The notes under the pieces were generated by a model. The model saw nothing but the letters and a program-made list of their open reading frames with translations, was not told the origin of the DNA and searched no databases. Made by a program: the position numbers and the translations under genes. From an uncultured cyanobacterium (GTDB taxonomy: Bacteria; Cyanobacteriota; Cyanobacteriia; Cyanobacteriales; Microcystaceae), in NCBI GenBank assembly GCA_963807635.1, contig CAWEDJ010000069.1, forward strand, positions 38,348 through 102,347: DNA of 64,000 nt, given 5' to 3'. The first letter of the stretch is position 1; each line of letters starts with the position of its first letter. Positions 2,550-13,894 of this stretch are shown in pieces.

Positions 2550-4694
2550 TTGTATAATGGCACTATCAAAAAAAATGAGGTTTTGGGTATGCTAACAGGA
2601 GTAGAGCCTTTAATTGTTGATGCCTTAGCCAAAGGATTAATCGGGCAATTGGTGAAGTCGGGCTGGGAAGGTATTGCGAACAGTGAGTTACTCCAAGCCA
2701 ATGTGGGGGATTTATGGCGAGATGGAAAATATCTCTTTGTCAGGGAATATGCTCAACGGTATTGGGGTCGGCACGGGCTCGTCAGAGTGTTGAAAATGGC
2801 TAAGCCGATGGATTTGGAATCAATTTATATTAATGTGCAATGTTTGGATAAATTTACACGCGACAAATATGAATCCAGTCTCAACTTAGAAAAAGCATTT
2901 CGAGAAAGTAATCAACGGCGGTATCGTTCTCAAAAAGACGGCAAACAAGAGGGCATGATGTTTGCGAATCAGGAAAAATATTTGATGGTTTTTGGAGAGC
3001 CTGGTATTGGCAAATCTACTTTTTTGCGGAAGGTTGGTTTAGAGGCAATGAAAGGAAATAATGAAAAATATCAACCTAATTTAACCCCTGTTTTATTAGA
3101 GTTAAAGCACTTTAAAGAAGAGCAGATTGATATTCAGGGATTAATCCAAAAAGAGTTTGATATTTGTGGTTTTCCTAACGTAGAAAAAGCCATTCCTGAT
3201 AAATTAAAGAAGGGTGAGTTATTAATTTTATTGGATGGTTTAGATGAAGTTCCTGATGCTAATACCAATAATGTAATTACAACCATTCAAAATTTTGTCG
3301 ATCAACATAACAAAAATCGCTTTATCATTTCCTGTCGCACGGCGGCTCGTACTCATTTTAGACAATTTACGGATATTGAAATTGTCGAGTTTGATGATCA
3401 ACAAATTGAGACTTTTATTAAGCATTGGTTTAGGGATGAACCAGAAACAGCGCAGGAATGTTGGCAATTGTTACAACAACCTAAATATGCCAGTGCTAAG
3501 GAATTGGGACAAACGCCCTTATTATTAACATTTCTTTGTTTAGCTTACGATGAAAATCAAGCGTTTCCCACTAATCGTAGTCGTTTGTATGGGGATGCTT
3601 TACGAATTTTATTAGAACGTTGGGCGGCAGAAAAAAGTTTACCCAATCGGCGACAAATTTACGAGAATTTGAGTATTGAAAATGAAGAAATTTTACTGTC
3701 AGAAATTGCCTATTTTTATTTTAGTGAAGACCGATTATTTTACAATCAAGGGGAATTAACGGATCAAATTAAAACTTTTTTAAGGGATAGTCTCAATGCC
3801 CCCCATTATTTAGATGGTGAGCAGATTTTAAAAACGATTGAAAAAGAGCAAGGAATTTTTGTGGAACGGGCGCGGGGGGAATATTCTTTTTCCCATTTAA
3901 CGTTACAGGAATATCTGACGGCGAAATATATTGTCGATAATAATTTGGTCGGGCAGGTGGTGAAAGCTCATCTCACGGAACCTCGTTGGCGAGAAGTTTT
4001 TTTGCTGATTGCGGGCTTGATTTTAGGGAAACAACAAACCAGTGACTTTTTTGGGGTAATGGCCCAGATGGCCAAAGATTTTCTTCAAACTCAACTGGGA
4101 AAAAAATTCCTACCTGTTTTAGAATGGGCAGACCGCATGACCAAAGATTCGGTGAATAGTCCCATTAAACGCCCAAGAAGAAGAGCGATCGCCTCCACCA
4201 CCGTCACCACCGTCGCCGCCGTCACCGCCTACACCAATGCCTTCGCCAACGGCTACACCTATGTCACTGCCAACCCTTACGACACTCACGCCTTCGACTC
4301 CGTCACCGTCAGCCTCAGCTCCAACGCCAATGCCAATGCCAAATTCATCGAATCTTGGATAACATTGACTGAATTATTTCAAAAAGACCAAATTTTTTCG
4401 ACCGTTAATTATCAGTCTTTAAGCACAAAATTAAGAGAAGAGCAAGACTTTTTTAACACGAAACCTCAATTAACAGACAAAGAATTTAAGGAAAGAATCG
4501 AGGCTATATTTCAAGTTTGGAATCAAACCTTTTCCCTAACTCCAGACTTATTAAACTTTGGGTTTGAGGAAATAGGCAACATTGATCAGCAGTATTTCTA
4601 TATTTATCGCTTGATGTTGGACTGCCAAAAAATCGCGCCGAATTTGGCTCCTGGGGTTTGGGCAGAAATTGAAAACGGAATGTTATTGCCTTAA
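2550..4694 (+). CDS. NACHT-domain (STAND) NTPase; start may be the ATG at 2589
   Basis: Walker A GEPGIGKST, Walker B LLILLDGLDE, FIISCR, TPLLL, YSFSHLTLQEYLTA and WREVFLL. Confidence 0.9.
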   Translation: MYNGTIKKNEVLGMLTGVEPLIVDALAKGLIGQLVKSGWEGIANSELLQANVGDLWRDGKYLFVREYAQRYWGRHGLVRVLKMAKPMDLESIYINVQCLDKFTRDKYESSLNLEKAFRESNQRRYRSQKDGKQEGMMFANQEKYLMVFGEPGIGKSTFLRKVGLEAMKGNNEKYQPNLTPVLLELKHFKEEQIDIQGLIQKEFDICGFPNVEKAIPDKLKKGELLILLDGLDEVPDANTNNVITTIQNFVDQHNKNRFIISCRTAARTHFRQFTDIEIVEFDDQQIETFIKHWFRDEPETAQECWQLLQQPKYASAKELGQTPLLLTFLCLAYDENQAFPTNRSRLYGDALRILLERWAAEKSLPNRRQIYENLSIENEEILLSEIAYFYFSEDRLFYNQGELTDQIKTFLRDSLNAPHYLDGEQILKTIEKEQGIFVERARGEYSFSHLTLQEYLTAKYIVDNNLVGQVVKAHLTEPRWREVFLLIAGLILGKQQTSDFFGVMAQMAKDFLQTQLGKKFLPVLEWADRMTKDSVNSPIKRPRRRAIASTTVTTVAAVTAYTNAFANGYTYVTANPYDTHAFDSVTVSLSSNANANAKFIESWITLTELFQKDQIFSTVNYQSLSTKLREEQDFFNTKPQLTDKEFKERIEAIFQVWNQTFSLTPDLLNFGFEEIGNIDQQYFYIYRLMLDCQKIAPNLAPGVWAEIENGMLLP
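4191..4340 (+). repeat. Low-complexity in-frame tract of 50 NNY codons inside the NACHT gene
   Basis: 43 codons end in C and 7 in T, against A/T-ending codons in the flanks; ends in AAC GCC AAT GCC AAT GCC. Confidence 0.85.
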
Positions 4695-4871
4695 TTTTGT
4701 CCTGCACTTTTTTAAAATTTACCCATCATGACAATTGCGATCGCGTTTTTACTGGAGTTTTAGGGAGCGATCGCGTAATACTCACTCTCAAAACCAGTTG
4801 AATCAATGATGATTTTTACTGATTAACTCAGTTATCCTATAGTAAAGTTACAAATCTTAACCTCAAGCCTT

Positions 4872-5835
4872 ATGCCTACCGTTAGTCTATTGCGTGCTGA
4901 TTCCTACGAAATTGAACGTTTATCCGCTTCCGTCCAAGCCTTGCTCGAACCCCTGGGCGGAATCGAAGCTTTCGTTAAAAAAGGCGATCGCGTTTTACTC
5001 AAACCCAATCTGTTAACGGCGGGTCGTCCAGAGAGAGAATGTATCACCCGTCCCGAACTGGTTTATTGTGTGGCAAAGCTAGTGAAATCAGTGGGAGGAA
5101 AACCTTTTTTGGGAGATAGTCCCGCTTTTGGAAGTGCTAGGGGCGTAGTGGAAACCAATGGCTATCTGTCCTATTTAGAAGAATTAGACATTCCCGTTGT
5201 GGAATTTCGAGGACAATCGTTATCAAACCGAAAGCGATAATTTCAATCATTTGCGTTTATCCAAGGAAACAATGGAAGCGGATGTGGTGATTAATTTACC
5301 GAAAATTAAATCCCATGTTCAATTAACCATGACCCTGGGCGTGAAAAACCTCTTCGGTTGTGTCCCTGGCAAAATGAAAGCCTGGTGGCACATGGAAGCA
5401 GGCAAGGACAGCGATCGCTTTGGCGAAATGTTAGTAGAAACGGCTAGGGCAATTAATCCCAATTTGACTATTTTAGACGGAATTATCGGTCACGAAGGCA
5501 ATGGCCCGATGAATGGGGTTCCCCGCGCTCTGGGAATTTTAGGAGCTTCTAGCAATGTGTTTGCTCTGGATTGGGCGATGGCAGATATTATCCAAGTGAA
5601 TCCTGCCGATGTACCGACCTTAGCCGCTCAACAACGCTTAGGTCTCGGTTTTGATCTGGCTGATCTAGATTTTCCCCTAGAGCATCCCCAGCAATTACAA
5701 GTGAGTGACTGGAAACTGCCCGAAGCTCTGATGCCCATTGATTTTGGCTTACCCAGGGTATTGCGATCGACCTTTAAGCACTTCTATATTCGCTTTATCA
5801 AGGAACCGTTAAACACCTATGCGTTGAAACCCTGA
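4872..5835 (+). CDS. DUF362 family protein; frameshift near 5210
   Basis: VLLKPNLL and GDSP in the first ORF; VINLPKIKSH, TLGVKNLFG and EGNGP in the second, overlapping ORF. Confidence 0.85.
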
Positions 5836-7229: not shown

Positions 7230-9097
7230 ATGACTGACCTGATTCTAGATGTTCGTAACTTGCAAATTGAATTTGCCAGAGAAGGAAAAACTGCCCCCAT
7301 CATCGCGGTTGATCGCATTGGCTTCCAATTGCAACGGGGAAAAATTCTGGGCATTGTGGGTGAATCAGGTTCGGGCAAATCTGTCACGTCTTTGGCGATT
7401 ATGGGACTGATTCCCAAGCCAGGTAGAATTGCAGAAAGCAGTGAAATTTATTTTTACCCCACTGAGGGCAGTCATGACGTAAATTTAGTCACTTTAAATG
7501 ACGACGAAAAACGTCAGTATCGCGGCGGAAAAATTGCCATGATTTTCCAGGAACCCATGAGTTCCCTTAATCCCGTTTACAATATCGGTTTTCAAATTAC
7601 AGAAGCGATCCAACTCCATCAAAAAGTTACTCCCGAACAAGCCAAACAACAGGCGATCGCCTTATTACAAGAGGTTCGTGTTTTAGCGAGTGATGAGACC
7701 TTAGAAGAAACTTTTTTAACGAAAAATTTAGCGAAAAATCCCCAGAAATCGGGTGCTGTGACCGAGCAAATTAAAGCTTATATTAAACAACAAAAACAAG
7801 ATTTTTTAAAACGCTATCCCCACGAACTTTCTGGTGGTCAACTGCAACGGGTGATGATCGCCATGGCCATTTCCTGTAATCCCAGTTTATTGATCGCCGA
7901 TGAACCGACCACCGCCCTAGATGTCACGGTGCAAGCAGAAATTCTCAACTTCTGCGGGATCTCTGCACCAGCGATGAGCGCAATATGTCGATGATTTTTA
8001 TTTCCCACGATCTAGGGGTAATTAATGAAATTGCTGACCTGGTGGCGGTCATGTATCAAGGTAAAATTGTTGAAAATGGTAGTAAAGAGCAAGTCCTCTA
8101 TGCTCCCCAACACCCCTATACCAAGGGATTATTAGCCTGTCGTCCTCGGTTACAACCCCAACTGGCCCAATTGCCGACAGTGGCGGATTTTATGGAATCG
8201 GATCAGCCCGCCAAAACCTATGCAATTATTAGTCCCGAAGAAGAACAGCAACGATTAACCCGTTTAGCGAAACAGGAACCTCTGCTCAAAGTGAGAGCAT
8301 TAACGGTTGAATTTTCTAAGTCAGGATTACTCGGAAAGCAGGATTCTTTTAAGGCGGTTGATAATATTAATTTTCAAGTTTTTCCAGGGGAAACTTTAGG
8401 ATTAGTGGGAGAATCGGGCTGTGGAAAATCAACCTTAGCCCGTACTCTTTTGCGGTTAATTCCTTCCCAATCAGGAGAAATTATATTTGGGGGAGAAACG
8501 ATTTCTAAGTTAGAGATGAGAAGTAAAAAATTGCGAAACCTACGAAGAGAAATGCAAATTGTTTTCCAAAATCCCTATAATTCCCTAAACCCTCGCATCA
8601 GCATCGGTAAAGCGATTATGGAGCCGATGATTATTCACCAAATCGAGAAGAGCGATCGCAAACGGAAGGAAAGAGTTTCGTCTTTATTAGAAAGAGTCGG
8701 TCTTGCTCCCGATTGGTTTAATCGCTATCCTCACGAATTATCGGGCGGTCAGAGGCAACGGGTTTGTATTGCCAGAGCCTTGGCCCTCAATCCCCAATTT
8801 ATTATTTGTGATGAATCGGTATCTGCTTTAGATGTTTCTGTTCAAGCTCAGGTTTTAAATTTATTTAAAGATCTCCAACAGGAATTCCAATTAACCTATA
8901 TTTTTATTTCCCATGATCTGAGTGTGGTTCGTTTTATGAGCGATCGCATCATGGTAATGAATAAGGGCAAACTCGCTGAAGAGATTAATTCTGCCCAGGC
9001 GATCATTACCCAACCCCAGAGTGCCTATACCCAAAAGCTGATCAATTCTATCCCCCAATTCCCCGACGATATGCAGTGGTTAAATGAGCAAAATTAG
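7230..9097 (+). CDS. Peptide/nickel-type ABC transporter ATP-binding protein with two ATPase domains; frameshift near 7950
   Basis: [13 protein letters not shown] and DEPTT in the first half; [16 protein letters not shown] and DESVS in the second; HPYTKGLL linker. Confidence 0.88.
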
Positions 9098-12902: not shown

Positions 12903-13894
12903 GTGACCCGTACTGCTACTTTAACACGTCAGTCGATGCTGTCATCGCTGTCTGATAATAATCGTCTGCGTCTTTTTTCTGGATCGGCTAATTTTCCGTT
13001 ATCGCAAGAAATTGCCCGTTATTTGGGAATGGATATCGGCCCGATGTTACGAAAACGTTTTGCCGATGGAGAACTGTATATCCAGATCCAGGAATCCATT
13101 CGGGGGGGGGATGTGTACCTCATTCAACCGAGTTGTCATCCCGTCAACGACAACTTGATGGAACTGCTGATTATGGTTGATGCTTGCCGTAGAGCCTCCG
13201 CCCGTCAAATCACCGCCGTTATTCCCTACTATGGATACGCTAGAGCCGATCGCAAAACCGCAGGACGGGAATCGATCGCGGCAAAATTAGTCGCTAACCT
13301 GATCACCGAAGCAGGAGCGCAACGAGTTCTCGCAATGGATCTGCATTCTGCTCAAATTCAGGGCTATTTTGATATTCCCTTTGATCATGTCTATGGATCT
13401 CCCGTTATTATTGATTATTTACTCAGCAAAAAATTGAGTGATTTAGTGGTGGTTTCTCCCGATGTGGGAGGGGTTGCCCGTGCTGGGCCTTTGCCAAAAA
13501 ATTAAATGAGGCTCCCTTAGCCATTATTGATAAACGTCGCCAGTCCCATAATGTAGCCGAGGTTTTGAATCTCATTGGGGATGTACAGGGAAAAACGGCG
13601 GTTCTCGTGGACGATATGATCGACACGGCGGGAACCATTCAAGAGGGAGCTAGACTCCTAAAGGCACGGGGAGCAAGACAGGTTTATGCCTGTGCAACTC
13701 ACGCGGTTTTCTCTGAACCAGCGATTTCTCGGTTATCGAGTGGCTTTTTGGAAGAAGTGATCGTCACCAATACGATTCCTATTCCTGAAGATCATAATTT
13801 TCCCCAATTAACGGTTCTGTCGGTGGCGAATCTCTTGGGTGAAGCCATTTGGCGGATTCATGAAGATACTTCTGTAAGTAGTATGTTCCGTTAA
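12903..13894 (+). CDS. prs: Ribose-phosphate pyrophosphokinase; frameshift near 13483
   Basis: FADGE, YYGYARADRK, DLHSAQIQG and VSPDVGG, then VDDMIDTAGT and ATHAVFS in the next frame. Confidence 0.92.

Follow-up and report, generated by a model that had tools for sequence, protein, structure and literature searches.

A hypervariable codon tract of hexamer-repeat ancestry in a cyanobacterial NACHT-NCH2 gene

Results

The NACHT-NCH2 gene and its surroundings

The DNA analyzed here (a stretch of 64,000 nucleotides, referred to as the window) originates from a Snowella-like cyanobacterium, whose 4.03 Mb genome assembly (G000) is 94% complete. It contains a gene encoding a NACHT-NCH2 protein, flanked by cobW and a DUF362 gene, with the following features (positions are those of the window):

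2589..4694, plus strand: NACHT-NCH2 gene, 701 aa from the ATG at 2589; the frame is open from a TTG at 2550
2589..2960, plus strand: N-terminal helical region, matching no Pfam or NCBIfam family and weakly resembling NNH3/NNH1
2982..3440, plus strand: NACHT NTPase domain (PF05729, E 4.5e-12) with intact Walker A (GEPGIGKST) and Walker B (LLDGLDE) motifs
4185..4192, unstranded: HIP1 site bordering the tract on its left, read as Ala-Ile-Ala
4188..4340, plus strand: NNY tract of 51 codons (residues 534-584), a hypervariable (Ala-X)n segment encoded by a degraded (GCC-WWC)n hexamer repeat
4196..4226, plus strand: 9-bp tandem sub-repeat (3.4 copies) inside the tract
4227-4263, plus strand: 12-bp sub-repeat inside the tract
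4321-4342, plus strand: 6-bp sub-repeat at the tract end
4464..4691, plus strand: NCH2 helical domain (PF22727, 27.4 bits, cut-off 27)

The gene is accessory. In two of five congeners (G002 and G003) cobW directly adjoins the DUF362 gene, which represents the empty site, a NACHT-NCH2 gene occupies the same site in G001, and in G004 and G005 the two flanks sit on different contigs. The named homologues of the protein come from Snowella (the closest) and Microcystis, and of 301 genomes sampled across the order, 57 have a homologue at E 1e-25 or better.

Several other features of the locus were observed. One relative (L057:5199-5887, compared with window 4742-4825) has approximately 600 additional bases 3′ of the NACHT gene, which are absent from the window. 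Seven close alleles (P0123, P0127, P0130, P0132, P0134, P0121 and P0138) stop early and end in short foreign tails, five of them in one common 494-aa form, which suggests that they are insertion-disrupted copies present in the population. Within the window, the DUF362 gene (4872-5835), the gene of an ABC transporter ATPase (7230-9097) and a gene which we take to be PRPP-synthetase-like (12903-13894) are each broken into two ORFs, which suggests indel errors in the assembly; the NACHT gene is intact. The His/Asp-rich linker of CobW (1968-2045) is itself a 26-codon NNY run, which is ordinary for this family of metal chaperones.

The N-terminal region is weakly similar to the NNH3 cluster (0.89), which serves as a lead only. 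Neither an enzymatic effector nor a partner gene was identified. PADLOC returned no match for any of the three proteins submitted, and the NCBIfam match to EruA (52.5 bits) was far below its cut-off of 1000.

A structure model based on 143 sequences shows an NLR-type fold and reached a mean pLDDT of 90.7 (a model from 18 sequences, with a pLDDT of 34.8, was unusable). The best solved structures retrieved with Foldseek were NLRC4, NOD2 and NLRP3 (E about 1e-11, TM 0.3-0.46), and a sequence search of the PDB gave no matches. In the model, the tract lengthens helix 528-553, continues as a loop to residue 579 and then begins helix 580-599. In terms of codons, the first 20 or so are predicted to extend the upstream helix, those at about 4248-4325 to form a low-confidence loop (pLDDT below 50 for residues 564-574), and the last ones to open the next helix; the tract is thereby predicted to be a helix-loop-helix of variable length preceding NCH2.

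The NNY tract and its repeat ancestry

The original prediction described 50 consecutive in-frame NNY codons at 4191-4340 (43 ending in C, 7 in T). This run, its translation, its (AAY GCC)x3 end and the HIP1 site overlapping its left edge are all present as described, and the run in fact begins one codon earlier, with ATC at 4188, which gives 51 codons (4188-4340) within ORF 2550/2589-4694. The GC content of the tract is 63%, versus 37% in the remainder of the gene. With the gene's third positions being pyrimidines at a rate of 0.477, the chance of a 50-codon NNY run is ~9e-17. No frame of the 4.03 Mb assembly has a longer run (51 codons, the next being 30, among 61 runs of at least 22 codons). 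The single HIP1 site is unremarkable, since the assembly contains 4738 such sites, or one per 850 bp; a HIP1 site nonetheless borders 19 of 41 homologous tracts on the left, its bases coding there for a conserved Ala-Ile-Ala. An antisense reading frame was also considered, and in a relative (L026) the opposite frame has stops just upstream.

The original prediction also described, for the first half of the tract, GCC-like codons alternating with freely varying ones. This pattern is blurred in the window allele, which is among the most degraded tracts, and it is plain in the relatives, whose DNA alternates between GCC and AAC/TAC/ATC and is read as (Ala-X)n. In most of these homologous GCC-WWC arrays the third-position C reaches 0.8-1.0, against about 0.1-0.2 in the flanks, and Tandem Repeats Finder (TRF) detected periods of 6/12/18/30/54 in L057. 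As shown by the arrays of the relatives, the tract descends from a (GCC-[AAC/TAC/ATC])n hexamer repeat, of which the window allele is a degraded copy. The third-position C is explained by ancestry, each of the two codons in the ancestral unit having C as its last base.

Of the two origins originally suggested, one was that a GCC-based hexamer repeat had recombined and decayed, and the relatives' arrays, the unit-wise changes and the mosaic alleles bear it out. Close alleles (P0011, P0126, P0129 and P0131) differ by 2-aa units and by one block duplication, and 17 of the 23 distinct Snowella-type tracts have an even length. One allele, P0088, consists exactly of P0143 residues (the first 23 aa) followed by the last 39 of P0066; a mosaic scan yielded 10 candidates, most of them less clean than this one. 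We infer from these comparisons that slippage and homologous recombination are the engines of tract change, with selection acting as a filter.

The hexamer pattern matched 92 of the 301 genomes. Thirty of these loci were inspected and comprised 7 NACHT-NCH2 genes, 5 genes of pentapeptide-repeat proteins (Pfam confirmed 3 of them), 14 Pro-Thr/Pro-Ser linkers, in which the same hexamer is read in another frame, and 4 others. Scans of a metagenome and a genome collection gave one locus each, and no NACHT domain was found near the pattern at 120 loci in viral contigs, within the DNA fetched. Some contigs of the viral collection (L164:1444-2283 on the minus strand, L200, L202 and L213) carry Ala-Tyr/Asn-like tracts whose match to the profile is limited to its low-complexity part, and the ORF of L164 has no Pfam match.

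The pentapeptide-repeat proteins (L062-L064, L085 and L086) carry the same GCC-based hexamer in the same frame, between hydrophobic segments, as (Ala-Ile/Phe/Ser)n tracts of 24-120 codons whose length varies widely among homologues; they are possibly a second family using the same diversifier. The unit GCC-ATC-GCC differs from HIP1 by one base, and some tracts (L098, L107, L088, L099 and L108) contain internal HIP1 sites, five of them in L098; 10 GCG codons of the Ala slots are due to these sites.

Variability of the tract among alleles

The predicted hypervariability is evident when homologous proteins are compared. Among 194 proteins, 27 of the Snowella type contained both anchors and carried 23 distinct tracts of 38-100 aa, with a mean pairwise identity of 0.45 in the tract, 0.96 in the 250 residues upstream and 0.84 downstream. 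The Microcystis type comprised 63 distinct tracts among 148 proteins. The homologue list consists of representatives of clusters at 90% identity, which favors distinct alleles in these counts, and cluster membership revealed that some alleles are unchanged across many records. At the DNA level, 55 of 57 loci examined yielded the segment, and in 44 of them the same site held a clearly bounded C-ending tract that was not a duplicate, in most cases 105-125 residues from the C-terminus. More distant relatives vary at the same place, some with Ala/Asp/Arg-Leu dipeptides, as read by eye (automatic classes caught 16 of 149). Two or three tract-bearing matches each are present in G001, G027 and G031. 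The search for sister cassettes suggested with the prediction found none in the source genome, whose four distant NACHT-like paralogues have no tract.

Population variation was analyzed with assembled contigs, of which the covered stretches alone were counted as evidence. The window allele was recovered in data from three studies: X1 (4193-4694, one difference), X3 (4220-4377, none) and X9 (4146-4296, none), of which one may be the window's own source and the latter two are shallow. In X4 and in X6/X7 (apparently one data set) the sequences depart from the reference at 4194 into different GCC-WWC tracts. The occurrence of an unchanged window allele in runs from three studies argues for standing allelic polymorphism and against per-cell hypermutation, and the variants fit stable alternative alleles.

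Selection on the tract and on the NCH2 domain

Single changes in the Ala slots were classified as non-silent or silent; the p values given below are optimistic, because the tracts are related and unit amplification inflates the counts. With a division into Microcystaceae (the host family) and other families that was chosen after seeing the data, the 19 anchor-defined Microcystaceae tracts gave a non-silent:silent ratio of 59:10 (p 3e-4 vs 2:1). Counted once per tract, their transversions gave 18:1 (p 0.005) and their transitions 18:6, which is not significant (p 0.26). The 22 tracts from other families showed no non-silent excess (59:72; transversions 14:5, p 0.35). The transversions of all 41 anchor-defined tracts (out of 55 loci, after dropping two near-duplicates and the loci without an anchor) were not significant (32:10, p 0.12), some of the silent GCG changes in this pooled test being ones that create HIP1 sites. 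When tract limits were set by C content, a method that favors C-ending codons, 43 tracts gave a transversion ratio of 38:4 (p 3e-4), again with one count per tract.

Ordinary genes provided a control. Between G000 and G001 the non-silent:silent ratio at GCC codons was 52:343 (98 genes, 35,617 codon pairs, 197 kb of G001), so position 3 is not spared genome-wide. Context-dependent mutation sparing a third C was rejected, as the C/T difference rate between these genomes was 0.135 after C and 0.113 after G.

The C-terminal region diversifies faster than the NACHT core, as judged from identity, pN/pS and column entropy. Upstream, four allele pairs had a pN/pS of 0.24-0.33, and their last 108 codons one of 1.29-1.78 (p 0.025 at a transition weight of 3, p 0.37 unweighted); in the pair that includes the window allele, the last 108 codons gave 0.53-0.77. 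The most variable NCH2 residues (column entropy of 22 close alleles) were 630/634/638 and 660/663/664/667, spaced i/i+4 like one face of each helix. These comparisons point to selection for amino-acid change in Microcystaceae and give no sign of it elsewhere.

Search for a diversity-generating retroelement

The other origin originally suggested, template-directed mutagenesis in trans by a diversity-generating retroelement (DGR), is not borne out. Adenine-tolerant scans and blastn of the 94%-complete G000 assembly, including the proposed search for an A-rich near-copy beside a reverse transcriptase (RT) gene, returned nothing above shuffled controls, and a pattern search of the relatives found no template. 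The five RT matches of G000 are spread over two contigs; two ORFs were scanned, and both fit the group II intron model best. The one Avd-like match reached 22.8 bits, below the cut-off of 40. No Avd match occurs in three single-contig carriers (G044, G046 and G054), the first two of which have the repeat pattern solely within the NACHT-NCH2 gene. Avd exceeded the cut-off in 22 of 89 host-family genomes overall, compared with 7 of the 20 genomes whose homologue reaches at least E 1e-49 (hand count), and in five of these seven carriers the Avd contigs had no repeat match among the matches listed. Six atypical RTs of G001/G031/G046 were best matched by group II, AbiA or Drt4 models, in a run without a DGR-RT positive-control model. 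G031 also has a 329-kb replicon on which one RT (L256:1022-3120) adjoins a Cas1 gene.

The codon spectrum was determined in 44 tracts. GCC fills 452 of 768 Ala slots, and the commonest changes are at G or C. The 518 X slots contain AAY (190), TAY (181), ATY (73), GAY (9), CAY (3), AGY (3) and ACY (0), with 35 purine-ending codons, which is not the outcome of random A-to-N mutagenesis. Out-of-register templated repair between codons was also considered and rejected, since it predicts more GAC than GTC, and GTC occurred 41 and GAC 12 times. Neither a CLec nor an Ig fold surrounds the tract: Pfam detected no CLec domain, and the C-terminus of the model is all-helical. Together with the changes in length, these observations largely refute a DGR origin of the tract.

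Discussion

Proposed role of the tract

The explanation that we hold to be probable is that a degraded hexamer repeat, diversified by slippage, mutation and recombination, encodes an Ala-X segment that contributes to the recognition surface of an NLR-like defence sensor. The original prediction spoke of a diversified recognition segment: that the segment is diversified stands, and a role in recognition is suggested by its position, by the selection signal limited to one family and by the helix-spaced variation of NCH2. Unit turnover would copy repeat units faster than silent decay removes them, and in Microcystaceae selection would retain amino-acid changes at codon positions 1-2; acting together, these two processes would create the appearance of position-biased mutagenesis. 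The tract and NCH2 are predicted to form the recognition surface jointly. In other NLRs ligand binding activates the NACHT switch, and by analogy it may here lead to NACHT oligomerisation and to signaling via the N-terminal helical region. The tract alleles would be long-lived population variants and not per-cell products. More tentatively, and with somewhat less confidence than doubt, we suggest that the 6-bp coding microsatellite sets an antibody-CDR-like loop in cyanobacterial NACHT-NCH2 receptors, so that the population holds, under selection, a repertoire of specificities generated by slippage, point change and recombination of alleles.

Alternative explanations

A slippage-prone hexamer located in a permissive loop could also drift under relaxed constraint, as a low-complexity insert with no part in recognition; being in frame and free of stops, it would owe its third-position C to ancestry alone. 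The tracts outside the host family and the pooled anchor-defined test, the low model confidence of the loop, the toleration of lengths from 38 to 100 aa and the use of the same DNA hexamer in ordinary linkers at nearly half of the inspected loci are all in keeping with such drift. We nevertheless consider it unlikely, because silent third-position changes in the host family fall below the neutral expectation (59:10; 18:1), whereas ordinary genes accumulate them freely. Moreover, the same site is variable in the wider family with other dipeptide alphabets, the adjacent NCH2 helices vary at i/i+4 positions, and allele families recur unchanged in many independent records. Selection of this kind would equally be expected if the tract and NCH2 varied to escape phage inhibitors or to tune auto-inhibition, the trigger being sensed elsewhere or indirectly. 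Such a surface for counter-counter-defence is suggested, in the text available to us, by Kibby et al. (10.1101/2022.07.19.500537) for the rapidly diversifying SNaCT domain of bNACHT01, and the selection ratios, pN/pS and helix-face variation found here do not separate it from sensing; no inhibitor of the NACHT-NCH2 family appeared in the literature searched, and we regard this possibility as improbable.

Least credible of all is a remote DGR that rewrites AAC codons in trans. A-to-N mutagenesis of AAC would yield NNC codons, Avd is present in about a quarter of the family genomes, and an element could be missing from the incomplete G000 assembly. According to the accessible parts of the respective papers, DGRs can have remote targets and indels linked to AAC, with indels in 7% and non-A changes in 23% of them (Wu et al., PMC5758913), and DGR-diversified NACHT proteins exist (PMC10907252). 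Given these rates no single point excludes a DGR, but the points taken together (no near-copy beyond shuffled controls, single-contig carriers without Avd, no repeat match listed on the Avd contigs of five carriers, changes at G or C, an X-slot spectrum unlike A-to-N, no CLec domain and an identical allele in runs from three studies) leave it very little room. No retroelement is needed to produce an NNC run whose third position is fixed, which is relevant to scans that search for DGR targets by codon pattern only.

The recognition-surface reading lends itself to experiment: dozens of natural alleles are ~96% identical outside one sharply bounded cassette, so tests of specificity by tract swapping are straightforward. 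The allele set comes from bloom-forming freshwater cyanobacteria.

Comparison with known systems

Coding short tandem repeats also generate strain-level variation by slippage in simple-sequence contingency loci. In the NACHT-NCH2 genes, in contrast, the unit length is divisible by three and preserves the reading frame, the units diverge in sequence and there is no on/off switching.

In anti-phage NACHT proteins, the rapidly diversifying C-termini are the likely sensor, according to the portions of Kibby et al. (10.1101/2022.07.19.500537) available to us. The proteins described there resemble ours in their NLR-like NACHT core, short and fast-diversifying helical C-terminus, frequency in cyanobacteria and accessory distribution. 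Here, however, the diversity is concentrated in a variable-length, hexamer-encoded (Ala-X)n insert, which those portions do not mention, no enzymatic effector was seen in the protein, and we found no assayed member with the insert among those they report. A search of the full-text literature, in which few subscription papers were included, yielded no description of a hexamer-encoded insert in NACHT-NCH2 proteins, and none appears in the accessible text of PMC7159879 or of the other papers cited here. The NACHT/STAND-CLec sensors of multicellular bacteria diversified by DGRs (PMC10907252; for cyanobacterial DGRs, PMC7517822; both seen in part) likewise combine NACHT with a hypervariable C-terminal segment of NNC codons. 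They differ from the present system, in which a CLec domain, template, DGR RT and Avd were not found and which shows G/C changes, changes in length and stable alleles.

The fungal HNWD/het NLRs, as presented in the accessible text of PMC13449251, also have a sensor that is diversified by repeat gain, loss and shuffling, with length polymorphism of the alleles, and the repeat-number polymorphism and shuffling seen between NACHT-NCH2 alleles are as in such NLRs with high-internal-conservation (HIC) repeats. Their hypervariable positions are under diversifying selection, which in our case is significant in the 19 family tracts and not in the 22 others. The fungal units are whole, near-identical WD40/ANK/TPR/LRR repeats, whereas the unit here is 6 bp (2 residues) and the product is a predicted helix and loop, not a solenoid or propeller. 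Repeat-driven diversification has also been noted for bacterial NLRs, again with WD40/ANK/TPR/LRR units. The present findings bear on the question of how bacterial NLR-like proteins gain and alter specificity and, if the reading as a CDR-like loop is true, the hexamer-encoded tract would represent a third route to bacterial receptor diversity, beside DGR-diversified CLec domains and the shuffling of whole repeats.
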